64,000 nucleotides of DNA from Schmidtea polychroa (GCA_044892525.1 CM097885.1:2048001-2112000); one strand, 5' to 3'; shown: positions 5,907 to 63,853, counted from the stretch's first letter. Numbers and translations are program-made. The notes: generated from the letters alone by a model not told the origin.

Positions 5907-6519
5907 GGCTTTTGTGTCATTTGATTGGTGCTTTCAATAATTGCGCTGGATTTATTGATTTCCTGGCACCATTAAATCAATAAGTCAAATTTTCAATCAA
6001 TTTTTATTTAGTTTTTCGTAATTTTAATTGACAATTCTTTTAGATTTTCCTCGATTTTTTAGTTTCTTAGAATCGACATTTTATTGATTTAATTATTGAT
6101 TAAATAGTCGATATAAAAATTGATTGATTTCTTTTAATAATTTATTGATTATTGCAAAATGAAGGAAACTAGATTTGAAATAGGCATAAAATAATTAAAT
6201 TTTGATTTTTTGGGCTGTGATAAAGGAGTGCAAAATTCAAATTTATTTTTTTATTAAAATTAATTAGAAAGATTAAATATCAATTAATGGAGAGGACGGA
6301 GGAAGGCGGAGGAAGGCGGAGGAAGGGCTAGCTAGCAAATAATATGTTAAAGGCAAATTTAATAATTTTAAATTGATGTGGAAGTCAAGAAGATGTAATT
6401 GCAAAAATATTAATTAATTAATTAATTAATTAAAATCATTGACAACAATAATTAATTCTTTTGGAAAGCAAAATCATCGAGCTTGACAGTTGCGATAGTA
6501 GAGTAATATGAAATTAAGA

Positions 6520-6930
6520 TAAACGTTACAAGCTTTGTGATACCCAGTGCAAATCCCAATAGTAGACTAGTTTCGAGCTTTTGGCTCTCATCAGTACTAT
6601 GCAGGAGACGCGAAGATTTCTTTTCATGCCAGGTAAGTATGCAATATTGCTGATTCAACTCTACTGCATACTTTACCTGCTACACTGGAAATCACGTCAC
6701 TTGCAAATTAGCTAAATCACAGAAAAAAAATATCAGCAAACTTGTAAACATGGCGTATGAAAATCATATTCGCCTCTGGAGACACCGTCATACACAGAAA
6801 CTGTTTACTATTCCATCCGTAAACCTTTAGCCTTTTTAACTTGTAATGGATTAAAATATTTTTTACGGATGTCTAACAATAAAATAAGATAAACATTATA
6901 AGCTTTGTGATACTTATTGTATACTTGCAA
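6520..6930 (-). repeat. Retrozyme/Penelope-pLTR-like repeat, ~370-nt monomer (one copy plus the start of a second)
   Basis: aagctttgtgata recurs about 370 nt apart (~6531 and ~6900); homologous to 8963-9134 (inverted) and 45911-46350. Confidence 0.7.
6559..6600 (-). ncRNA. Minimal type I hammerhead ribozyme
   Basis: Minus strand reads ATAGTA-CTGATGA-GAGC-CAAAA-GCTC-GAAA-C-TA-GTC-TACTAT: intact core, 6-bp stem I, 4-bp stem II, palindromic ACTAGT stem III, GUC cleavage triplet. Confidence 0.9.
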
Positions 6931-6940
6931 TATTGTATAC

Positions 6941-8962
6941 GGTGACCGGACAAAACAGAACAAGACAAAACAGAACATGACAAAACAGAACAAGACAAAA
7001 CAGAACATGACAAAACAGAACAAGACAAAACAGAACAGTGACAAAACAGAACAGTGACAAAACAGAACATTATTTTTATTTTAAATTATTATTGTACATA
7101 TTATTTTACATCTAATCTTGATGTTGTAAGCATTACTGGAGGTTGGCCATTCTGCGTAAATACCTCAATTTGTCTTCGTGAGCGTGGTATTCCTGCACAT
7201 CTATTGACACTTGAAGAGCAATGGCTTCGTACTTCTTTTTTATCACTTCTTGGCGACCTGTCTGGGCATTGGCTAGTATTAATCGCTGACAAGCCATATC
7301 TCGTCTTAGTCCATCTAATAAATTCCATATGCTTGGGTTACTACAATGAAATATTGAATTTAATGCGTTGTGAAAACCTTCACAACAATTTGTTGTCTTG
7401 GGAGATCGCTCAGCAGCAGCCTCGAAATGGTTCCATATTCTTATTGGAAAGAGTGGTGATCTTCCAGCAACTCCTTCGATGTAGGTTGAGCAGAAATATG
7501 CTAATATTTGATTGTAGGCATCCTCATCTGGAAATGTTGCAGCTAGTTCGTCAAAGACAGTTTTTAAATCTAAGATTGGAACAAAGGAGAGTGCAGCTAA
7601 CGACTTCAGTTTCAACTTTATGTCAATATCGGACTCATATAGTGCTTTCAATCCAACACTGTTGATCTTCCTAATTAAGCTTTGGCTGAGATGAAAGTAG
7701 CATCCTTTTATTTCTGCTTGTGGAAAAGCAGCTTGAGCAGCAGACATACATGCTTTTCAAAATCCAGTAGAATTTTTTGAGGTGTCATATTGGGCACCAA
7801 TTCCTTTAGTATTACAAACATCCTGTTGTATGTACTCATATTCTTTTTTTGTAAAAGAAAATATATACATGGAGGATATGAATTTCCAATCTTAGCATGC
7901 CATGTATACAGCTGATAGAACATGTTAGGTGCTTTATCAAATGTTCCGTCTCCATAAATGACATCCTTGTGTAGCTCTGAGACAATATCATTATTCCCGA
8001 TTGCCAATATTCTTTCTGGATCATCAGTTCCTGTATCATATAAAATGAGATCAAGAAATTTCTCTGGTATAATAAAATCAGTTGTAGCTGGATTCGGCAA
8101 AGAAAAGGTTTCCTTATGTCTACCAAGATTTCTTGTGAGTGAGGATTGCTTTGGTAAATGTTCCAAAACATCGCTATTTACTAATGCTAAGGCATTTCCC
8201 AGAATATTTCTTGGAGTTGCACCAATTGCTTTTATGTCCTTTTTAATCTTAGCCTTTAAAATATTTGCCTGTGCTTTTTGAGGATTTGATTGATGGCAGT
8301 GTTGAGGGACCTCTCCAACGATGTTTTCTCCTTGTGTTTTCAACAATGCTCGGCATTTCGTGGAAAAGTAGATTCTGCATCTCCAGGTGACGACTCCGCC
8401 TTGGTTTTCCCTATACTTTGTATATTCATAGCCTTGGTACAATAGACATTTATTTTCTTTATTTGTGATTGAATATTCCATGATTTTATTATTTATTTTA
8501 AAGCTTTAATTTAACTGAAAAACAAATCTATAATGATAATATTATAATGCAATAGAGATACTTATAGGATCAATTCCTTTCTGACAAGGTAGAAAAAAGT
8601 ATAAAAGTCAGTTAAATTTTATAGAAAAAATCGCACTAGGAAAGAATAAAGAATTTATAGAAATTATTTAAAGTTAAATATTTCAAAAAGTGTTTTTATA
8701 AAAATTGGGGAATACTGTAATTGTAAATTCGATTGTAATTCAAATCGCTGCAAATGTAAAATGGCCAACCTCCAGTTGTACAATAATAATTTAAAATAAA
8801 AATAATGTAATATAATATATAACTTTTTTCCACATGTTCTGTTTTGTCACTGTTCTGTTTTGTCATTGTTCTGTTTTGTCTTGTTCTGTTTTGTCATGTT
8901 CTGTTTTGTCTTGTTTTGTTTTGTCATGTTCTGTTTTGTCATGTTCTGTTTGTCATGGAACC
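6941..8962 (-). mobile_element. Mutator-like (MULE) DNA transposon
   Basis: Perfect 9-bp TSD ATTGTATAC (6932-6940 and 8963-8971); GG...CC termini; inverted subterminal arrays of GACAAAACAGAACA units; encodes a MULE transposase. Confidence 0.93.
7133..8481 (-). pseudogene. MULE transposase with FLYWCH-like N-terminus, one frameshift near 7750
   Basis: YQGYEY..WRC..C..HCH, YGDGTF, LLDFE, GCYFHLSQ, TTNCCEGFHN; ORFs 7708-8481 and 7133-7747 join if one A is restored in DFEK-ACMSAA. Confidence 0.9.
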
Positions 8963-9007
8963 ATTGTATACTTACCTGGCGCCAAGAGAAATCTTCGCGT
9001 CTCCTGC

Positions 9008-9049
9008 ATAGTACTGATGAGAGCCAAAAGCTCGAAACTAGTCTACTAT
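9008..9049 (+). ncRNA. Minimal type I hammerhead ribozyme
   Basis: ATAGTA(9008)-CTGATGA(9014-9020)-GAGC-CAAAA-GCTC-GAAA(9034-9037)-C-TA-GTC-TACTAT; predicted cleavage after C9043. Confidence 0.9.
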
Positions 9050-9521
9050 TGGGATTTGCACTAGGTATCACAAAGCTTGTAACGTTTATCTTATTTTATT
9101 GTTAGACATCCGTAAAAAAAATATTTTAATCCATAATATGAAATTGTATTTATTTGTTCAAAGATTTGGGAGGAGGAGGGAAGGGGAGAGGAGGAGAGGG
9201 GGCTGTACAGAAAATTTGTGTTAAATAAGTATAAAATATTATTTTCAGTTCGTATGCTATCATGTATTTTTGAAATTTATTAATTTATTTTTATTTGATT
9301 ATATTAATTTTGTCTCTGAAATATTAATAATTTGGTTCTAAAAAGTCATAAAATTTAAATTCACATACAATCAAGCTTTAATAATATTTGACAATAATAA
9401 TAATAATATTAATAATTCAATAAATTTCATATTAATATTTGTAAGATTAGATCAAAACAATATATAAAGTACAAGATATTTCAGCACTGCCTTTTTCAAA
9501 TGTATATTTGATGAATAATAT

Positions 9522-10271: not shown

Positions 10272-10339
10272 ATATTACGAATATTAATATAAAATTTATT
10301 GAATCAAAAAAAAAGATATATGATGAAACCGAGAGATAA

Positions 10340-10467
<128 letters not shown>

Positions 10468-10489
10468 GTAATAAAAATAATAATAATAA

Positions 10490-11155
10490 TTGAATAAGTC
10501 CAAGAAATGGTATAACAATTTTATTGGCATCCAAAGGGCCACGTGGATCAGTTTTGAATAATAACCGTTTGTCCATTTCAATATCATGAGGTAATGCCAT
10601 CATTGACCGAAATTGAATGAAATCAAGACCTAATGGTCGCATCTCAGCCGATTGGGTATAGAGCTTATTAATATCCGCAATAGAACGACATATTATGTCA
10701 CAAGGCATTGCATATCCAATTTTAGATTTAAATCGAGCTGCTTCCACTTGTGCACGACATACTTGAGATCGACAATCAGGGATCATACCAATCATAACAC
10801 CTCCAGTACTTTCAGTAATGTTAAACAATCTTGTGGCTGAACTCTTCTCAATCATTTTATCTGGAACTTTTCTCTTTGCATATCTATCGATTTCATTAAG
10901 CCAATTTTTAACATTGTTAAACGAATCTTGATCGGTAACATCAAACACAACAATAATTCCATGAGCTCCTCTGTAATAAGACGAGGTTATAGTTCTAAAT
11001 CTTTCTTGACCTGCTGTATCCCATATTTGCAATTTCATAGTTTCACCATTTCCAGTATAAGAATCATCTGCAGGTCTGAATAATAAACAAGATTTTCCCA
11101 CACCAGAATCTCCAATTAATAGAAACTTGACTAAATAGTCACACTCTGGATTCAT
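10490..11155 (-). pseudogene. Intronless chimeric ORF: Rab1 N-terminal half (switch I deleted) fused to a proteasome subunit alpha-6 fragment, running into (TTA)n
   Basis: [25 protein letters not shown]...[27 protein letters not shown]...EIDRYA matches Rab1; [35 protein letters not shown] matches PSMA6; junction near 10877. Confidence 0.88.
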
Positions 11156-19896: not shown

Positions 19897-37070
<17,174 letters not shown>

Positions 37071-42333: not shown

Positions 42334-44557
42334 TTGTATCAATCATTCGGTAAGGATTTTTGATTGCTTATTTTGAATTTTTAAGTAATGCGTATAGTTT
42401 AATAATATTTTTAATTTAAAAAAAAATGGTTTTTTTCTTTTCGTTTGATTTTAGAATGCTTTACTTAAATTAATAATTTGCTTGATAATAAATGATTTGC
42501 TCGTTAAGAATTATTGATCTTTTATGAATTAATTTTTATGAATTATTGGAGACTATTCAATTTTGCGAGAAACGTGGCGTTGAGATACTCTATGTCATGG
42601 TGTGAGGTGCCTTCGGGAGCTCCACCGGTGGACATAGGGTATTTCAATCACGCAGCTAGATTGGGCCGAAATGTGAGGGCTTCTTCACGGGTCCAATTGC
42701 TGAAGGTGCGACTAAAATCTATAGGTAAATGGTGGCAGAAAATTGATAGTCATGTAGTGATTGAAAACAAAGATATGTAATAAAGGAATCGGAGGATTTT
42801 GATGTGTTCGCGCAGTGATTGAGGGTGTCACACTATCGTCTTCGAATATCGTTTTTTGGCTAAGCAAAAATTCTCTCTATCATCAATGTAAGTTGTGCGT
42901 CAAGAATTGTTCAAACCATAGTGAGGCTATCTGTGACATATCTTCGATGTTCAGACTTTTCACTCAGAATCTGTTCCGACCAATTGTTAGCCTAAGACCT
43001 TTTGAACTGTTATTCCGTTCATCTAAAAGTTCTCTTACAGACATAGTTGCAAGGGAGTTCAAGGTAGATTGCTTCAGACAAGTATTAGGATTTCTCGAAA
43101 TGACTGCTTGTAAATAAATGGTAGAACCATGTAAAATGATTTAATCCAAAAAGTTATTCAGAATTGCATAAAACGAGTTTGTTCCAAATAAAAGTTTAAA
43201 TTACATAAATGATTTGCTATAATAAATTTTTAGAATTATATATAAAAGAATTTACATACAATTAATTACCATAATTACATAAACTATTAGCATCAAATAA
43301 TTTAACAATGAAAAATGCAACCAATTCGAGCCAAGAAAAATATATTTCTTCAAGTTAGCCGATGATCTTGTTAATTAAATATAAAATTCCAGTATTTCAT
43401 GGGGTTGGCAATCCAGCAGGGATAGGAAAAATCCTCCAGCACTTAGAGAGTAGATTGATAAACTAGGTTTGAGGAATTAAAGACGAAAAATCCACCCTTG
43501 GAGCAAGCTATATCCAACATTTGCAATACAGATGATAAAAATTTTTCCAATAATCCGGTGAGAATTGGTAAATCATCACCATATGCAGGAGAATTGTGAG
43601 TGATTACGCGATAGATAAAATTCTGAGAAAATGCCATCATGCAAACATTTAACACCTACATTTGTAGCATAATTAAGTGTGTGAAAACGCCCCTTGCATG
43701 CGTCACCAGTTGCAGACATACCTACACACCGAGAAACTCCAGACCGAACATACCAGGTGGAGTTTCTATTAACTAATTAAACTACCGATAAGTATCGGAT
43801 TTCACCGCTCCAGATTAATAGTCAACCACCGGGCTGACAGTTCCTTATCTACCTAGCAGGAATGGTCGGCTTCTAGCTCACATTGATACCGTGCTCGGTT
43901 ATCATAAAGACAATATTTTTTAATGATAAACCCCGATCATAATTATGATTATTCTCTCTTTATTATCTTAGCATGAATGGCATAGAAATTATTTCATTTT
44001 GACATAATTATCATTAACACCAACATCGAATATGATTAAATAAATATTATTTAAACCAGGTAAAATACACATGTGAGTAAACAGAGGGAATGAATAAATA
44101 ATTAAAAAATTAAATGACCTTCCGTTTATCCTGTAGGAACTAATCAACAGACATTATGGACCCCCTTTTCCGTAAATAGTCAACCGACCCCAGTATATGA
44201 TACATGCATCAAAATCACTCGTTCGGGGGGAGAAGTCAACAATTCAACTCGATTCTCAATAAACGTGAAATAATGACTTCAAGCGGATTAAATAAATAAT
44301 CATTTTCATCGACCTAGAATTTCTCTCACTAATGGTAATATCTTCCTTTCCTTGCGCGAAATCTGGTTTGATCGATTTATCTTCTTATGACTAAAGATTC
44401 AAAAGATATGAGGATCCATCGTGCAGTGGAACTTGTCTTGACTAGTAAACCCATATTTTTGTCTATGATCAGTAAGGTATGACGGTGGTCGGATGGTGAC
44501 ACTCCCGCTGATTTAATTATTTTCATTTTTTCATTTTCTTTTTCACAGTCGCTCAAA

Positions 44558-45307
44558 ATGTTGCCAAATTCCAAGCCCGTTCTTCGACCTTGTTTTTCTT
44601 GCTCCGACAAGAATTCGATTATCAAAGAGCTCCAGGCCCAAATCGGAAAGCACAAAAGAAAGATAGATGAGTTAGAGGGGACATGGTTTAGTCCCACCCA
44701 GATGAAGGAGGTTCAGAAGAAGCTGCACCGAAGCGAGCACTGTAGAGACGCGTTGATTTCCGAGAGTCGGGCGCAGAGGAGCCTGATAAAAGAGCAGTCG
44801 GAGGCGCTGCACAAATTATACGTCCAGGCAGCAACTACAAGGAAAATCGCGAAGATCCCAATTAATGAAGCCAGCAATCTTTTCCCAGCGCATCATGATA
44901 TCTCTGGCGGATCTTCTTCTCCAGTCGGAAAGTCCTGCCATGGGTGCGTAGAGACCGAGCTCTCACCTAAAGAACCAGAAATCATCTTTACCGGAACCAG
45001 TAAAGTGCTACCTGCGATAGCGTCCACCTCCGTAGCACCCCCGATCAATCCAACGGCATCGAAGCCAAAGCGTCGGCAATTATCGAGAGCCGAACGCAAA
45101 AAGAAACAGCGGGAACGCGTAACCGCCAAACAGAACCAGCAATCGTCGGATCATCCCATCAAAGTCATCAACCCTCCTGCAGCAATCGATTTAGCATCAG
45201 TGATCCCAGGGCGAATCATCTCCGCCGCTGGTGTTACCTGGGAGGAAAATGCCTCTGAATTTTTCGATTTGGAAGATCTATTGGCAGACTCAGAGTGGGA
45301 GAAATGA
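44558..45307 (+). CDS. Hypothetical 249-aa protein (CxxC, coiled coil, basic NLS-like stretch, acidic-aromatic C-terminus), probably encoded by a mobile element
   Basis: Intact GC-elevated ORF; putative 5'-UTR intron (GT ~44477 to ttttcacAG 44549); degraded paralog at 40191. Confidence 0.65.
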   Translation: MLPNSKPVLRPCFSCSDKNSIIKELQAQIGKHKRKIDELEGTWFSPTQMKEVQKKLHRSEHCRDALISESRAQRSLIKEQSEALHKLYVQAATTRKIAKIPINEASNLFPAHHDISGGSSSPVGKSCHGCVETELSPKEPEIIFTGTSKVLPAIASTSVAPPINPTASKPKRRQLSRAERKKKQRERVTAKQNQQSSDHPIKVINPPAAIDLASVIPGRIISAAGVTWEENASEFFDLEDLLADSEWEK

Positions 45308-45910
45308 GAACTTCTCCGTAAAAAGTCTTCGTTCTCTGAATTGATCCGAACATTGTCTGATAACATTTTTACCTTTGTCTCTATTCCTGTTGTCGTGAAT
45401 TTTATTGTATAGGTGTTAGATATATTTGTGTGATAATCTTAATAATAAACCATTTTTGTCTGCATACGTTTTTTTTTCCTTTTGTGTTCATCTTAAGACA
45501 GTTGAGTTGAAATTGGTAAATGGTATTGAGAGTCATAAAATTATGAGGAGCATTAGTCAGTTGGTAAACTCAGCTAGAATTATTGCGATGGGGCGACGGA
45601 ATGAGTAGACGTAAGTCCTTCTATCGGCAGTCAGGGTTGGGAAGTCGAGGCCTCAGTAAGGAGTAGTCCGAAGGAGCTGGCTCACCTGCTTACTGGCGTC
45701 TCGCCGGCATAGCACAGTTCCAACGTGAAGCAATTCACGGGTGCTATGCTGGAGTGTAGGTTATGTACGGGTCCCGCTCGGCGATGACCAAATGAATGAC
45801 GGGCGAAATCGAGGTGGGCATTCATCCTCTAGACTAAAGCTGCACTAGAAAAGGGTCATCCGAGTAGTGTACTCGCAACATTATCATCATTATATTATCA
45901 TAAAACAGCG

Positions 45911-46350
45911 CAAGCTTTGTGATAACCATTGTAAGTCTCAATGTTAGACTAGTTTTGAGCTTTTGGATCTCATTAGTACTATACAGGAGACGCGCAGATT
46001 TCTCTTCGCGTCAGGTAAGTATACAACAGTGTTGAATCAACTTCATTGCATACTTACTCTGGTACACTAAATATCACATTGTTTGTTTTTTTTGGGTTGT
46101 CCCCGAAAATCTGAAAACTTGCAAAGAAGGCGTATGAAAAATCATAATCACCTCTGCAAACAAATAAAAAATTAGACGAAACATAAAAATTGTTTGCAAG
46201 TGCATCAAATAACCTTTAACCTTTAATTTACAAAGTTAAGGTGTACAATTATTTTGTCTTATACTTTCATTAATAGCGCAAGTTTTGTGATATTCAGTAC
46301 AAGTCCCAATAGTAGACCATTTTCGAACTTTTAATCTTCATCAGTACTAT
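45911..46350 (-). repeat. Two tandem, degenerate copies of the hammerhead-containing ~370-nt repeat
   Basis: Homologous to 6530-6780; period ~368; cores mutated (CTAATGA/CAAAA in the first copy; CTGATGA with weakened stem II in the second). Confidence 0.8.
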
Positions 46351-52780: not shown

Positions 52781-55284
52781 CAGTGATGGCGAACCTTTTT
52801 TTCTTGTGGGTCAAAATTAATTTAAAAAAAATTCAATTTGGAGTCGCAGGTCAAACTAGCTACATATGTATCTTTAAAATTTAAACAATTATTATATTTA
52901 CTTTTTTGATTACACTTTTATTTAAAAAAAGTTATACAAACAATTCAGTAAACAAATAAAATATAATTTAAATAAATAATATAAGAAAATTAATGTGAAA
53001 TTTGCTGCTGCTTTTCAGATGATAATTTTTGTATATCTGGTTTATAAGTTGTTGACCTTAATCTCACACATGCAGCAGTCATTTCTTTACCGAGTCGATT
53101 TCTTTCCGAGGGCTTTATATAATTCAATGAAGAAAATAGTTGCTCACAGTAATAAGACGAAAAGCTAAAGTTTTCATGCAAATAAATGTATTTACCATAG
53201 AATTCCACGCTTGGAGTATAATATTTTCTATATTTTCTTCTGCTGATTCATTAAAAGAAATTTGGGAATTATTTAATTCTATTTTTGCAGTTAAATCTTC
53301 AAATTTATTTCTCCATAAAAAACTATTTTGAAATTCTACCAATTCTATTTCTAAATTATTAATATTCAACCAACCTCTAATTCCAAATTTTTGAATTCAA
53401 TATTATGAGGATACATGATAAATTGTAAACTAGTTTCCTGTTGCTTAAATTGAATAAATCTGTTTTCAAAGGATTCTCTGATTTCTTCAATAATTAATAC
53501 ATAGTTATTGATTTTATTCTCGTCAACCTCAATATTTTTCCCAAAATGCGTTGAACTTTTAAAGTGTTCAAGTAAACGTGGAAAATATTTAAAAGTTTTC
53601 ATATTCAAATCTTTTATAAAAATGTCCAATTTTAACACAAACGATTTAATATTTTCATACATATTTAAAGCAATTTGTCCACGTCCTTGAAGTTTCTTAT
53701 TAAGCTCGTTAAAGTGCTGTGTTATATCACAAAAAAACATTAGATCATTTAACCATTGTAAATTTGTTAGCTCAGGATAATTTACATCCTTTTCGTGTAA
53801 AAATAGTTTTAATTACTCAAGGAGACTAACAAAATGATTTAAAACTAGACCGCGGCTGAGCCATCGAACGTTATTATACATTAAATGTCCTGAATACTGG
53901 GAATCAATTTCGGATAATAATTCAGCGATTTCACGCCTATTCAGATCTCGTGCAGATATAAAATTGACAATATTTGTCACTGTTGCCATAACTTTCGAAA
54001 ATGATTGTAATCCTTTTTTAACACACAGTACCCCCTGATGAATAATACAATGAAATTCAACTAATGGACGTCCAATGTATTGTTTGAGCTGTGTAATAAA
54101 TCCAAAGTTTTTTCCAACCATGCTAGGAGCACTATCTGTAGTTACGGAAACAATCTTCTTTATATCAATATTCATTTTTTCAATTTCTTCTTTAAATCCA
54201 TGCATAATATCCACACCTGTTGTTTTTCCTGTTAAATTTACTAATTTTAATAATTCTTCTCTCATAATATTCGCAGATTTGTATTTAGCAATTATTGCAA
54301 CCTGTGCCTGACCAGTTATGTCGGTACTTTCATCCAACGAAACCGAAAACATTTCAGTATTTTTTAAGTCTGCAATTAATTACATAGAAGTATTTCCGTC
54401 CATAGTTAAAATTCTGTCTTTTACTGTGTTCCGACTAATTGACAATTATTTTATTCGTTTTATAATTAGATCTTTTTCTTTAAAATCGGAAAACAACAAA
54501 TTGCTGCAATCTAAAAGAGCTTCTTTAAAAACTCTCCTTCTGATAATGGTTTCCCATATTTTGCAATTGAGTGTGCCTGCTGAAAACTAGCTGACGTAAT
54601 ATGTTTTTTGGGCACAACAAACGATTTCAACGTATAAGTTTCAGCTTGATATTTTTTTATTCTTTTTTCTCTTCCTCTGTTAATGAAACTAGATTTTTGC
54701 GAATAGTTTCAAAATGTCTTAGTTGTGACGTTCTCTTTGCACAGAATGCAAAGCGTTTTCTTATTTTTTTCAATTACTCCAAATTTGAAAAACCATTCTT
54801 CATGATACATTCTTACCGTACTTGCTTCATTCGCCTTACGTTTTTTGCTCATTGACATCCTGAACTAATAATAAAAAATCTAAAAAAATTGCTAATAATA
54901 AAAAAATCTAAAAAATTGGCTTGTAAAAAATTTATATTGTTAAAATGACTTACCAATTATTAAAACTATAACTTGCTAAATAATATTTAATTATAATACC
55001 AATAGATTCTAGTAATAAGTAGATATTTAAAACTTATATTATTTATTTTTGTTCGGTGGTGACATCTAGATTTTAGTAATTTATTATTATTATACATAGT
55101 TTTTGAGATTCTATTTTTTAAAAGAAAAAAATGTTTTTTTTGTAAACCAATTATAATAAATATAAAGGATTTCTTAGTGTTTTGAAAAAAATTCAAATCT
55201 AACATTTAAAACTTTCTCTTGGGTATTTAAAAATAATTTCGTGGGTCACTTCTTGACCCACGGGTCATGGGTTCGCCTTCACTG
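52781..55284 (-). mobile_element. hAT (Charlie/SPIN, GTF2IRD2-like) transposon with a disrupted transposase
   Basis: TIR CAGTGATGGCGAACC / GGTTCGCCTTCACTG; TSD gagcaggg/gaataggg; SLDESTD, VTTDSAPSMVG, HCIIHQ, VRWLSRG, LNKKLQG, YYCEQLFSSL. Confidence 0.9.
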
Positions 55285-55433: not shown

Positions 55434-57463
55434 CATAGGCGTAGCCACGCCCGGGCAATTATAGGCAGTACCCGGGTTTAATTTCTTTCTGACCGGGTTG
55501 CACAGGCTTTTGAAAAATAAAAAGTCTTTATTTTCAGTCCATTGAAAAACAAATGAATCATTGTGTTCGCGGGCTTGTCAGTAATAGGTACATATTTTGT
55601 AAAATTGCGACCAAGACTGTATTACGCATAGCCGTCTCCCCTAAAACAACAATGTTGCGATCTTGTAGCAGCAAAGTGTGCTGCTAGGCTGAAAGTTAAT
55701 AAACCAATCACAGCACACCTATCAATTAAACAGCAAACAAGTCACAAAAAGCAGACGATTTTGCAGACGACTATTTCGACATAAAATTAGTAACTGTGAC
55801 GTAATGTTTGACCTATTTATTAATAAACAAATAATATGATTGTCGAATCATAGACGAATAAAACATCTTGAATAAACTGGTAATGAATAAAACATTCAGG
55901 CATACGCAACGTAGTAATGCACATTAATTTTGTAAAATTTGAATATTATGCTGATAAGTAAATAAGCAAATAACTTTAATTTTAATAGGATAAATAAAAA
56001 AATCTACAATAATTTTTAAAAAAAATAAAAATATTGTAACCATGGCCACTCAAGACCGAAGAAAGAAACGAAAAAGCGATGAGTTAGCAATAGCGTCATA
56101 GGGGGTGCATAAATTGTCAGCGCTCGGCTTTAGCATCAATCCAAAAAATAAAGACACCATCGACACGCCGGACAGGGCAGTCTTACGCTGCGAAACATCG
56201 AATGACACAACTTCTGTTTCTACATCAAATTCGAATTGATCAGTGAGTAAATCGTTATGCCGATATTCCAGTGAAAAACTCGGGAAATGAAGTAAATGAA
56301 CAGAATAAACAATCTCAAAATCTCCTAAAATTTCCAGATCAAATTTTCAAGGGGAAACTGTATGTCCTCGTTCAACCAACCTCACTTATATACACGTGGA
56401 GATATTTTGGAATAACTAAATCGTTTTCAAAGTTGTTTTTTTTCGGAATTTCCGTGGGTGGAATATTCTGTTAAGCAGGATGCTTCATATTGCTTTTGCT
56501 GTCGTTACTGGAGCAAAGAAAGTTCACTGTTTGCCGAACCTACTGGATTTTCTGACTGGCAGCACACAACAGGTCAAAAGTTTGGATTAACTCTTCACAA
56601 TTCCTCTGCTGAACATTTGCGATGCATGATGGAATGGGGTCAATTTAGAATCCGAGAGAAAGAAGGAAAACAAGTTGTTAATTTGATCGATATGGCTGCC
56701 GTTACACTGCGCGAGAAAAACAGGTACTACATAAAAACGTTAGCAGAGGTAATATTATTTTGTGCTAAACAAGAAATCACTTTACGTGGTCACGATGAGA
56801 GTGATGAGTCGGAAAACAAAGGAAACTTTTTGGAATTAATCGACGTCATCAGCCGTCACGATGACAAGTTTGCAGCTCGATTGCGTTCATTGCCCGACAA
56901 TGCCATTTATTTATCGCCATCAATCCAGAACGATAACGCCCTTTGTATAACCACTTGCATTTCGATATAACATCAAAAGCCGTCGAAGAAACGGGTATGT
57001 TCTCACTTTTGGTAGACGATACATAAGATATTAGTAAGGCTGAACAAACGTTCATAGTGTTACGATTTTTTGATAAGTCTACAAATAGCATTAACGAATG
57101 TTTTCTTGGCTTTTTCAGCCAAGTGGTCTTGATGCTCAGTCTCTCGTAAACTGCATTACTGAGGCGCTGAACCAACATGATGTTAACATTAACAATTGCA
57201 TAGCTCAGGCATACGACGGTGCGTCAGTGATGAGTGGAGATATTAGTGGAGTTCAGAGGAAAATTCAATATTTGGTTCCGCATGCGGTCTATGTTCTTTG
57301 CTACGCACATAGAGTCAACATTGTTTGTGTTAGTAAATGTTTGTAAAAATGAACCGATCGCTCGTGATTTTTTTGATCTTGTGCAGTTGTTTTTATCTAA
57401 ATTATGAATATTTTTGTGTTGGGCAGCTGCCCAGACTGCATTATGACCCTGGTTACGCCACTG
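55434..57463 (+). mobile_element. hAT (ZMYM1/TTF-type) transposon, internally deleted and degenerate
   Basis: Termini CATAGGCGTAGCCA / TGGTTACGCCACTG; TSD aatatagt/aatgtagt; YCFCC, LRGHDES..NKGNFLEL, YLSPSIQND, QAYDGASVMSG, CYAHRVN. Confidence 0.85.
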
Positions 57464-60492: not shown

Positions 60493-60912
60493 TTAAAATA
60501 ACTGTGAAAGTCTAGCAGACATAATTTTCCAAATTGGAGAATACACATCATTATTATCAACTTTATATCCTTGGATTGTAATTGTTATATACCAATTTTC
60601 GTTTTCTTTGAAACTGATTTCATCAAAGGAATCATAAAATTTTGCATATCGGTTGTTGAAAAATGCATTTTGATTGCATGATAGATTCGTATTCAACCTT
60701 TTGAAAACATCATCTATGGTTTTAATATCTAACATTGAAAGCGTGCCGGTTAAGAATTGAAATTGGGTAGGAATTAGCTTGATCGGTGACACCAATTTCA
60801 TATTGATTTCTTCTTTTAAAAAATACATTTTGTAGTTGTGGAACATTTGAACAGGTTGTACAAGTTCTGGAACTACTTTTGGTTTTTCAGTGCTTGAAAT
60901 TTTCTTGGTCAT
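60493..60912 (-). CDS. Maverick hypothetical protein, 139 aa
   Basis: Intact ATG-initiated ORF in the compact gene block; no family recognised. Confidence 0.65.
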   Translation of the reverse strand: MTKKISSTEKPKVVPELVQPVQMFHNYKMYFLKEEINMKLVSPIKLIPTQFQFLTGTLSMLDIKTIDDVFKRLNTNLSCNQNAFFNNRYAKFYDSFDEISFKENENWYITITIQGYKVDNNDVYSPIWKIMSARLSQLF

Positions 60913-61020
60913 TGTGAATTATGATTAAAATGAAATGGTATAGGGTTTTTATACCTATGACTATTGTTTATCATCCAATCAGATTGCAGTATGTTTTTGT
61001 TTTAATTGAATGATAAATAA

Positions 61021-61485
61021 TTAATTAAGTGATAATAAAAAATCTAAAAATTCTTTTCCTTCAATTATTGATTTAATTTCAGATATGATATTATCAACTA
61101 TACTTTTGTAATCAATATTTTTTATTCCAAGAATTACTATCTTACCGCTAGCGAATATATTTACACACATAGGGTTATATTTTATATATCTCAAAGCTGG
61201 AAATAATTCTGGTTCATAAAAGCATGGTATTAATTTAGCTAATTTATTTAAATTACAAGAAAAACCTATATCGGAAGTTACGGTTATCGATTGTATTTCT
61301 AAATCATAAACATTATATTCACTAGCTTTGATTATTTCCTTACACCCCATAATTCTACATTTACCAGTTTTGAAATATATTATTGGATATTTATTACTTC
61401 TATTGATAAGTTGTTGTGGTTTCCCTATTGGAAATACCATTTTTGATACATCAGTTTTTGCCCTGTAATTTATATTTGAAAGCAT
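61021..61485 (-). CDS. TATA-binding-protein-like protein encoded by the Maverick
   Basis: Two TBP-like repeats: IIYFKTGKCRIMG and FYEPELFPALRY..VNIFASGKIVILG (compare TBP YEPELFPGLIY..LIFVSGKVVLTG). Confidence 0.85.
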   Translation of the reverse strand: MLSNINYRAKTDVSKMVFPIGKPQQLINRSNKYPIIYFKTGKCRIMGCKEIIKASEYNVYDLEIQSITVTSDIGFSCNLNKLAKLIPCFYEPELFPALRYIKYNPMCVNIFASGKIVILGIKNIDYKSIVDNIISEIKSIIEGKEFLDFLLSLN

Positions 61486-61589
61486 TTTAATGAAATAATT
61501 TTAAAAACTTTGATATATATAGGTATTTAAAAACAGAGTTCATTTAAATTATCAATATAAACAATAATTATATAGTTTAAATTTAAAAA

Positions 61590-62228
61590 ATGGAATTACG
61601 AAATGATGCAGTATACCAAATCGTTGGTCCAAGTGGTAGCGGGAAAACTTTATTTGTTTGTAAATTACTAAAATCAAATTTGTTTAAAACAAAATTCAAC
61701 AATATTTATTGGCATAGGGGCGCCGACGAAGAACACGGATTGACGCAATCAAGTTTCTGTCAGTTGAAAAACATGAAAATAGTAAAGGGCTTTGATAAAA
61801 ACTGGTCAAGTCGTTTGAAGAAAGATGATGTCATCATTATCGATGATTTGTATCAAGAAGTCAATAAAGAAAAGGACTTTAATAATTTATTCACAAAAAT
61901 CAGCAGACATGTTGGTGTAACAGTTATTTTCATAACACAAAATCTATTTCATCAAGGTGGTGCACATCGAACACGTAATTTAAATGTACAATATTTAGTT
62001 ATTTTCAAGAATCCTAGAGATGCAACTGTCATTGATTTTCTTGGACGACAAGCATACCCTAATAACCGTAATTTTCTTATCAGTGCATTTCAAGATGCCA
62101 CGAAAATACCGCATGGGTATATATTTCTCGATTTCACACAACAATGCCCTGATGATATACGGGTAAAAACAGATATTTTCAACCCAAAAGGTGCCATGGT
62201 ATATAAACAAAGTTCAAAACAAAGTTGA
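61590..62228 (+). CDS. A32/FtsK-like DNA packaging ATPase
   Basis: Walker A GPSGSGKT, Walker B VIIIDD, SRH, ITQNLF, RNLNVQYLVIFKNPRD, PHGYIFLD. Confidence 0.93.
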   Translation: MELRNDAVYQIVGPSGSGKTLFVCKLLKSNLFKTKFNNIYWHRGADEEHGLTQSSFCQLKNMKIVKGFDKNWSSRLKKDDVIIIDDLYQEVNKEKDFNNLFTKISRHVGVTVIFITQNLFHQGGAHRTRNLNVQYLVIFKNPRDATVIDFLGRQAYPNNRNFLISAFQDATKIPHGYIFLDFTQQCPDDIRVKTDIFNPKGAMVYKQSSKQS

Positions 62229-62241
62229 AAACATATAAATC

Positions 62242-62736
62242 ATGTTTTCAAAAACAAGGATATCGGGTAAAAAACAACCAAAAGTTCCACCAACAACTAG
62301 TTATACTCCATCTAAAGATCTTATTACAGAAAATTTTCCTGCAATGAATCTTATTTCGAAAAATCCTAAACCTAAACCTAAAAGTAAAACCACTAAGAAA
62401 GTAAAAGTTGTTAAAAATCATCGGAGTTTCCCGTTTTTCAATACATTGTTAAAGGCACCAAGTATGAAAAGAAACAGTATTTTGCAATCATTTCCAAATT
62501 ATGTTGTCGATGATTTACTCGATATTATACTTAAAGTAGTCAAAGGCAAGATTAAAATCAGTAAATCTAAAAAGCAATTATTGAGTAAACATAGGAAACC
62601 TTTGCTATCATTAGTAAATAATAAAAATCGTCAACAAATGAGAAAAATTATATATAAACAACAAGGGGGATTTATCGGTGCATTGATACCTTTAGCAATA
62701 TCATTATTAGGTGGAATAATAGGAAGTCGATCATAA
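62242..62736 (+). CDS. Basic Maverick virion-type protein with a C-terminal GG/F site and amphipathic helix
   Basis: Lys-rich; ends QQGGFIGALIPLAISLLGGIIGSRS. Confidence 0.7.
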   Translation: MFSKTRISGKKQPKVPPTTSYTPSKDLITENFPAMNLISKNPKPKPKSKTTKKVKVVKNHRSFPFFNTLLKAPSMKRNSILQSFPNYVVDDLLDIILKVVKGKIKISKSKKQLLSKHRKPLLSLVNNKNRQQMRKIIYKQQGGFIGALIPLAISLLGGIIGSRS

Positions 62737-62797
62737 ACAATGGGTGCTAATCCTTCATTACCAGACATTAAATTTAATATTAAATCTTCTTGTTGTA

Positions 62798-63853
62798 ATG
62801 GAGAAGATTTGGACGAACCCGGAAGACGAAGCCGGTTTTGGTGGAGTGGCAAAATTAAGGAAAAGAGTTCCGAATTCGAAAAAGGAAACACAGAAGTGGT
62901 TATCAGACCAGCTTGCGTACAGTTTGAACAAACCAATGCGGAAACGATTCCCAACAAGAACATATAAAACATATGGAATAAATGATTTATGGCAAATGGA
63001 TTTGATGGAGATGATACCCTATTCGAAAATTAACAATGGGTATAAATATATTTTAACATGTATTGATGTATTCAGTCGGTTTGCCCGAGCAATACCCGTC
63101 AAGGCAAAATCTGCAGATGAAATGTCCAAAGCTGTTAATCATTTATTTAAAGATGGACATCCTAAAAACTTGCAAACTGATTTAGGTATTAATATTATTA
63201 TTTTTATTATTATTATTATTATTTTAGGTAAAGAATTCTACAACAGTAAAGTCAAGCAAATCCTCAATAAATTGAAAATAAACCATTACTCAGTACATTC
63301 TCAATACAAAGCTGCTCATGTTGAAAGATTTAACCGAACTTTGAGAGATAGATTAAAGAAATTATTCGTGCATCAAGGTAATAAAAAATGGGTATTGGTT
63401 TTACCAAAAATAATAACCAGTTATAATCACTCATCACATCAAGGACTGAATGGATTAAGGCCGATTGATATCACGTCAAAAACAATCTATTCTAAAAAAC
63501 CTGAAAAAATTACAAAACCGAAATATAAAGTAGGTGACCATGTTAGAATTAGTAAAATTAGTGCATCACCATTTATTAAAAATTTTGATACGAATTGGAG
63601 TGATGAAGTCTTTGTAATTTCAAAAATAAATACTAAACAGAATCCTGTAATGTATGTCATCAAAGACAATGATAACAATATTGTACAAGGAAAATTTTAT
63701 GAACAAGAATTACAAGTTATTCCTCCCCCAAAAGTATTTAGAATTCAGAAGATATTGAAAACTAAAAATAAAGGCAAGGATAAACAATACTATGTCAAAT
63801 GGCATGGTTATCAAAACCCATCATGGATATCAGAAAAGGATCTAGTAAAGTGA
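62798..63853 (+). CDS. Polinton retroviral-like integrase with C-terminal chromodomain; probable 42-nt intron at 63186-63227
   Basis: WQMDL, CIDVFSRF, LQTD-G-KEF, VERFNRTL, YN..H, KVGDHVRI, FYEQELQ, YYVKWHGY..SWI; first ATG at 62798. Confidence 0.95.
   Translation: MEKIWTNPEDEAGFGGVAKLRKRVPNSKKETQKWLSDQLAYSLNKPMRKRFPTRTYKTYGINDLWQMDLMEMIPYSKINNGYKYILTCIDVFSRFARAIPVKAKSADEMSKAVNHLFKDGHPKNLQTDLGINIIIFIIIIIILGKEFYNSKVKQILNKLKINHYSVHSQYKAAHVERFNRTLRDRLKKLFVHQGNKKWVLVLPKIITSYNHSSHQGLNGLRPIDITSKTIYSKKPEKITKPKYKVGDHVRISKISASPFIKNFDTNWSDEVFVISKINTKQNPVMYVIKDNDNNIVQGKFYEQELQVIPPPKVFRIQKILKTKNKGKDKQYYVKWHGYQNPSWISEKDLVK

Follow-up and report, generated by a model that had tools for sequence, protein, structure and literature searches.

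The 64,000-nt stretch of DNA analysed here (the window) holds protocadherin-like and DCLK-like genes, with animal kinase matches at 39-62% identity, and between exons of the DCLK-like gene lies an Rfam match to mir-753 (25600-25660, minus strand; 65 bits, gathering score 62). The host is an animal, and the mir-753 match together with the AT content hints at a planarian. Near its left end, a repeat of ~370 nt occurs in two oppositely oriented copies, A and B, together with a DNA transposon. Read from the left, the locus consists of a 12-bp outer target-site duplication, TAATATGAAATT (6504-6515, plus strand); copy A (6516-6913, minus strand), made up of one 370-nt unit and ~29 nt of terminal redundancy; a head-to-head junction filler (6914-6926) formed by an 11-nt duplicate of the copy B start; the 5' piece of copy B (6927-6940, plus strand), which closes with the left 9-bp inner duplication; a FLYWCH-MULE DNA transposon (6941-8962, minus strand); the remainder of copy B (8963-9134, plus strand), which opens with the right 9-bp duplication and terminates in a 41-nt 'tail' (9094-9134, plus strand) present at this end only; and the right 12-bp outer duplication (9134-9145, plus strand). 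The period in copy A is 370 nt, with 6511-6543 recurring at 6881-6913, and this copy spans 1.1 units and carries one hammerhead only. The unit is devoid of coding capacity: stops interrupt all six frames, and the frame opened by the ATG within the hammerhead core is 21 codons long in copy A and 15 codons long in copy B.

The 12-mer TAATATGAAATT, a word ending in ATT, stands directly outside both ends of the insertion. In a chance control, 12 of 20,000 random AT-rich 30-nt pairs shared a 12-mer, and the same word is present once more on the opposite strand (9423-9434), so that AT-rich chance is not nil as a source of the outer duplication. Copies A and B end 50 and 91 nt beyond their predicted cut sites, respectively, which leaves a 41-nt extension on B alone (40-41 nt allowing for 1-nt overlaps). 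Since the MULE landed 14 nt into copy B, which starts near 6927, A (minus strand) and B (plus strand) are joined at their 5' ends via the 13-nt filler and point outward. An earlier note on this DNA had proposed a fold-back junction near 6920; a joint does exist at 6914-6931, but it is the 5'-to-5' joint of two copies lying in one insertion within the 12-bp duplication. Judging from this layout, copies A and B appear to be one mirror-image insertion bounded by the outer duplication and later split by the MULE. The arrangement had also been called tandem and inverted. Inverted applies to the A/B pair, but the tandem component amounts to 1.1 units in A and ~1.2 in a third copy, C, with no intact head-to-tail hammerhead pair in the window. 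The intact motifs of A and B lie on opposite strands, so one transcript of the locus cannot hold both, and neither an intramolecular dimer nor a cut-to-cut monomer can derive from it.

The transposon makes up three quarters of the interval 6520-9134, which had been taken as repeat throughout. It has ~200-bp terminal inverted repeats and internal 15-bp tandem repeats, the inverted ends holding ~8 copies of the 15-bp unit. The 9-mer ATTGTATAC borders it on both sides (6932-6940 and 8963-8971), and duplications of 9 bp are typical of MULE elements. As this duplication lies inside copy B, the MULE insertion came second. Long inverted ends, the 9-bp duplication and the FLYWCH and MULE domains are all shared with other FLYWCH-MULE elements, whereas the element found here is a passenger in the locus and differs in having its transposase spread over two overlapping frames (7708-8472 and 7133-7756), between which the two domains are split. 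A public 449-aa FLYWCH-MULE relative is 97% identical to the second of these frames and uninterrupted, which indicates that the MULE family may be recent.

Each of copies A and B carries a canonical type I hammerhead (6554-6606, minus strand, and 9002-9054, plus strand). The segments 6559-6600 (minus strand) and 9008-9049 (plus strand) are letter-identical, as had been claimed, and fall within a 76-nt identical stretch; they are also the only two places retrieved when both strands of the window were scanned for the core plus stem II. Both motifs possess the conserved core CUGANGA / GAAA / UH and helices I, II and III, helix I measuring 6 bp and being extended by a distal stem, helix II measuring 4 bp and helix III 1-2 bp within the palindrome ACUAGU. 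In copy A, an ATG at 6591 falls within the core. The hammerheads are predicted to cut themselves after C6565 (copy A) and C9043 (copy B), the latter in agreement with the position given before. On the other hand, the label 'minimal' has to be dropped: passages of Cervera and De la Pena (2014, PMC4209133) define the min-HHR of Penelope-like elements (PLEs) by its long helix II and short helix I, by an additional base before helix II and by an absent or vestigial helix III, and under these definitions a 6-bp helix I and a 4-bp helix II with no extra base are canonical. A search with hammerhead models, suggested as a check, did find both motifs with Rfam HH9 at ~24 bits (E 0.006-0.008), but this score is below the gathering score of 52, and a standard gathering scan therefore reports no hammerhead.

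Folded alone, the hammerhead is no better than shuffles (z -0.83), and its lowest-energy fold differs from the active one. The 147-nt block encompassing two upstream hairpins, P1 and P2, and the hammerhead was more stable than 200 of 200 shuffles in both A (z -4.7) and C (z -4.0), while the whole unit scored z -3.0 as a linear and z -3.3 as a circular molecule, with 0 of 60 shuffles as good for the circle. Closure of helix III in the monomer would cost ~5.7 kcal/mol, and pairing of the palindrome with a second copy is calculated at -4.8, modelled energies that would be compatible with cleavage as a dimer. Hammerhead dimer cleavage is reportedly the subject of a 2017 paper by Lunse et al.

The further copies announced at 45.9-46.35 kb correspond to copy C (45911-46350, minus strand), an older copy of ~1.2 units that is 75% alike to A. 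Its period of 368 nt (45911 / 46279), together with the 370 nt of A, confirms the monomer length of ~370 nt, but both its hammerhead cores (45936-45988 and 46304-46350) are damaged. Motif C1 has two core changes plus stem mismatches, and C2 has mismatches in stems II and III; the set of core letters and helices present in A and B is thus incomplete in C1 and doubtful in C2. At its 5' end (46350), copy C stops at the upstream boundary of hammerhead stem I and not at the cut site. No clear target duplication was found for this copy, and an nhmmer search of the window returned no copies beyond A, B and C. A GC-rich non-coding stretch (45540-45890) with no Rfam match adjoins copy C and ends in ATTATC-like repeats, and a 274-aa frame upstream of that stretch (44483-45307) has no Pfam match.

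We compared positions 6360-7000 with four of 24 listed public runs, namely three contig sets of organism A and one RNA run of a second species. Matching contigs numbered 5318, 2941 and 441 in the three organism A sets. In X3, the hammerhead reached a summed depth of 1.1-1.2 million, compared with 23 for the flank and 26-72 for single long records; the corresponding X1 values were 0.27-0.37 million for the hammerhead and 7.7 for the flank. This hammerhead-to-flank ratio of order 10^4 suggests a family of order 10^4 copies in the genome, although summed contig depth is not copy number; the four motifs in 64 kb agree in direction with high abundance, and the ribozyme family is likely to be very abundant in the host animal. 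Towards the 5' part, summed depth dropped five- to eightfold (to 0.15-0.25 million in X3), a pattern that 5' truncation or divergence would give. Among the loose ends listed (24 of 689), contigs of organism A ended against unrelated flanks at 6515/6519, which is the end of copy A (41+27 contigs in X3, 36+24 in X1; agreement ~0.5), and none of the ends listed fell at the cut site. These positions suggest that copies in the public runs end 46-50 nt beyond the cut site. Single contigs matching 6514-6878 also displayed internal deletions, strand switches and head-to-tail joints at shorter periods (140, 295 and 319 nt), which suggests that the family includes units of varying length and further inverted junctions.

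Among the variants listed for X3, changes at core positions 6563, 6583, 6592 and 6596 accounted for <1% of depth. The second-species data derive from one raw poly(A) RNA run, in which 72 of 11,974,664 reads matched, in both directions. There, the stem I pair was changed at both positions (6596 in 37/45 reads and 6563 in 44/50), and a minority of reads carried changes in a distal stem pair (6606 in 12/37 and 6554 in 15/45), all of these being per-position frequencies. Hairpin P2 (6607-6630, minus strand), with 10 bp and a GNRA loop, covaries as well. A loose end after 6611 in the second species (27 reads, agreement 0.75) reads as P2 in the form GGCGCUCAGA-GCAA-UUUGAGCGUC, and the majority form in organism A is GGCGCGAAGA-GAAA-UCUUCGCGUC; the two differ by two double-sided changes and one single-sided change, and the GNRA loop is retained. 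Absence of covariation in the stems had been named, together with absence of cleavage, as what would refute the proposed family; compensatory pairs were found instead in stem I and in this upstream GNRA hairpin. Taken alone, the four window motifs gave no signal above control, their pair counts being matched by 129 of 500 shuffles.

The region upstream of the core contains a candidate 75-nt GT-AG intron (6597-6671, minus strand), whose 3' end would fall within stem I of the hammerhead, 5 nt short of the ATG. Its donor-like word GUAUGC (6671-6666) pairs with a branch-point-like word (6639-6631) in the 16-bp stem of hairpin P1 (6631-6678, minus strand), and both words have a predicted unpaired probability <0.1 in A and C. 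The 3' arm of P1, ACUUACCUG, is both branch-point-like and U1-5'-end-like, and the same double resemblance holds for UACUUACCUG in the arm opposite GUAUGC, the likeness to the U1 5' end being limited to ~11-13 letters. A U1-derived SINE was considered and rejected, as U1 gave no Rfam match at E up to 10. In the second species ACUUACCUGG is retained, and the letter before ACUUAC is changed. An antisense 5' splice site on the plus strand, CAG/GTAAGT, a strong donor, is an equally literal reading of the branch-like word.

The candidate has a counterpart in the Penelope element of D. virilis, which has a 75-bp 5'-UTR intron (in passages of Craig et al. 2021) whose end maps to helix I of the hammerhead (in passages of PMC4209133). 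Our candidate is of the same length, and its 3' end likewise falls within helix I, on the 5' strand and shortly ahead of the ATG; it differs in being recognised from motifs and length, and in that its donor and branch words pair with one another, forming a 16-bp stem that precedes the covarying GNRA hairpin. No description of a donor/branch-pairing hairpin of this type was found in the literature listings. We consider it rather unlikely, yet worth stating, that this intron operates as a self-locking splice switch, in which the donor would be paired to the branch-like word, the conserved GNRA hairpin would stand between branch point and acceptor, and the AG would be held in stem I. Unspliced RNA would then be active ribozyme and copy template, whereas spliced RNA would lose four of six stem I pairs; in an autonomous parent, this spliced form would serve as an mRNA that is safe from cutting and begins at the core ATG. 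Against an intron, the 5' end of copy C retains the last four intron letters and the acceptor AG doubles as a stem I pair, and the changed letter before ACUUAC in the second species and the strong plus-strand donor in the branch-like word count against it as well; furthermore, ~40 second-species RNA reads cross the acceptor unspliced, and no 75-nt splice joint is among the joints listed (15 of 43). If true, the lock would offer a specific reason why Penelope-like elements retain introns, which is so far unexplained, and both this retention and the purpose of the hammerhead would become testable questions.

With regard to origin, the locus very probably arose by one head-to-head insertion of a ~370-nt hammerhead repeat that encodes no protein; the insertion has a 12-bp duplication, was later split by the MULE and was likely made by a PLE enzyme acting in trans. 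Passages of Craig et al. (2021) describe an inverted truncated copy adjoining PLEs, a one-sided tail of 30-40 bp and mostly 5'-truncated insertions; in rotifer examples, the duplications measure 8-10 bp and the tail 31 bp (passages of Arkhipova et al. 2013, PMC3846280). For the lizard PLE PAc, passages of Frangieh et al. (2024, PMC11167929) report that both strands are nicked at ATT, that two internal cDNA starts define the tail, that the ORF starts within the hammerhead and that transposition proceeds in vitro without cleavage. Endonuclease-positive PLE insertions thus share with our locus the head-to-head inverted copy, the one-sided tail, the target duplication, an AT-rich target with ATT at its end, copy ends that lie downstream of the hammerhead and an ATG in its core. 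The locus differs from them in lacking a reverse transcriptase-endonuclease ORF and in its canonical, not minimal, hammerhead; its duplication is 12 bp compared with the 8-10 bp of rotifer PLEs, and its 41-nt tail lies at the top of the published range (30-40). Duplication and tail are documented at this one insertion only. The search for a linked Penelope reverse transcriptase came out negative within the window, where none of 107 frames of at least 72 aa contained an RT or GIY-YIG domain. A weak search for relatives of the 41-aa frame running through the hammerhead ATG returned one candidate and none that scored, and the only match of a metagenome pattern scan (L001) was discarded as chance, as it lies within a polyketide-synthase-like ORF that bears no resemblance to the window.

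The following sequence of events would account for these features. Longer-than-unit family RNA, either an uncut tandem transcript or a circle, would associate with the reverse transcriptase/GIY-YIG endonuclease of a PLE at another locus, and this enzyme would nick both strands of the AT-rich target 12 nt apart. At each nick, one cDNA would start from an internal RNA position downstream of the hammerhead (+50 for one, +91 for the other); both would stop early, their truncated ends would be joined leaving a short filler, and repair would produce the target duplication, the MULE landing 14 nt into copy B at some later time. The hammerhead, presumably under structural selection, would cleave unspliced RNA, preferably in dimeric form, and the cut would not set the copy ends. 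That copies end 46-91 nt past the cut site, and not at it, points to PLE-type internal initiation over copying from the cut end. Together, structure, abundance, cross-species compensatory pairs and the absence of RT from all 107 frames support a non-autonomous, hammerhead-bearing, PLE-related repeat family. The non-autonomous self-cleaving family proposed in the earlier note is therefore supported in part, self-cleavage being a prediction; that proposal had overlooked both the MULE and the outer duplication.

Metazoan non-LTR retrozymes are among the nearest known systems. According to passages of Cervera and de la Pena (2020, PMC7229834) and of the preprint by Li et al. (2026, 10.64898/2026.07.22.740005), these have in common with our repeat a protein-free, low-GC unit of 150-450 bp with one canonical type I hammerhead each, a target duplication >4 bp, a high copy number and a predicted stable fold. 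By contrast, the window copies comprise 1.1-1.2 units and not arrays, and none has the two consecutive intact motifs by which the 2026 preprint defines 'active' elements. Head-to-head insertions with a tail are not described in the passages of either source, and the word 'inverted' has 0 occurrences in PMC7229834. In its passages on vertebrates, the preprint identifies retrozymes as non-autonomous PLE derivatives, its testing being confined to vertebrates. The repeat is a new family of non-LTR retrozyme or non-autonomous PLE repeat within a known class, which the supplements of the 2014 and 2020 Cervera papers may list, and the locus is a clear invertebrate case in which a unit of retrozyme size is linked to the insertion chemistry of PLEs.

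A circular-RNA cycle, in which tandem transcripts would self-cleave to 370-nt monomers that become circles and are copied repeatedly by a PLE or LINE enzyme, could coexist with insertion by PLE chemistry, from which it differs in making cleavage and circles obligatory. We regard it as a serious prospect that falls just short of an even chance. The canonical hammerhead with its near-invariant core letters (changes at <1% of depth among the organism A variants listed), the extension of A and C beyond one unit and the stability of the circular unit over shuffles (z -3.3, 0/60) all favour it, as do the coral, mussel and axolotl repeats of similar size that yield circles according to passages of PMC7229834. 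It is weakened by the window, which has no intact head-to-tail pair, and by the 72 poly(A) reads of the single raw RNA run, from another species, which show no read-end pile-up, although they are a thin sample from which to judge cleavage. Likewise, PAc transposition in vitro needs no cleavage (passages of PMC11167929), and of nine frog retrozyme dimers one was cleaved in vitro and eight were not (passages of 10.64898/2026.07.22.740005). Circles may nevertheless form elsewhere in the family.

Should the copies merely represent 3' stubs, or solo pLTRs, truncated from an autonomous PLE, with no short unit of their own, most contigs spanning the hammerhead end and the fall in depth towards the 5' part would agree with the 5' truncation of most PLE insertions (passages of Craig et al. 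2021), and copy B is such a stub. However, in A and C the sequence behind hammerhead and tail leads directly into another hammerhead at a constant spacing of 368-370 nt, and stops occur in all six frames where an autonomous element would carry its ORF, which leaves this origin distinctly improbable. Spread of a satellite at the DNA level, with the inverted pair as a chance rearrangement linked to the MULE insertion, can draw on the MULE lying 14 nt from the junction and on the chance short repeats that AT-rich DNA yields; we give it hardly any credence, as the MULE's own 9-bp duplication within copy B places the MULE second, the 12-bp outer duplication bounds both copies exactly and contig ends cluster at fixed positions against unrelated flanks. 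PLE-type insertion of a short non-autonomous unit thus remains the preferred explanation of the locus.

The window contains further features of possible mobile or chimeric origin. A 283-aa frame (10304-11155, minus strand) joins a Ras/Rab-like part to a proteasome-subunit part, and a second frame with a similar proteasome-subunit stretch lies at 29448-30023 (plus strand). Broken hAT-like transposase frames were found at 53366-54379 (minus strand), for which the hAT-like family label is our assumption, and at 56416-56970 (plus strand), which has a DUF4371 match. Finally, a Polinton/Maverick-like cluster occupies 60493-63853, comprising a TBP-like frame (61021-61500), an A32-like ATPase (61587-62228) and an integrase with a chromodomain (62723-63853).
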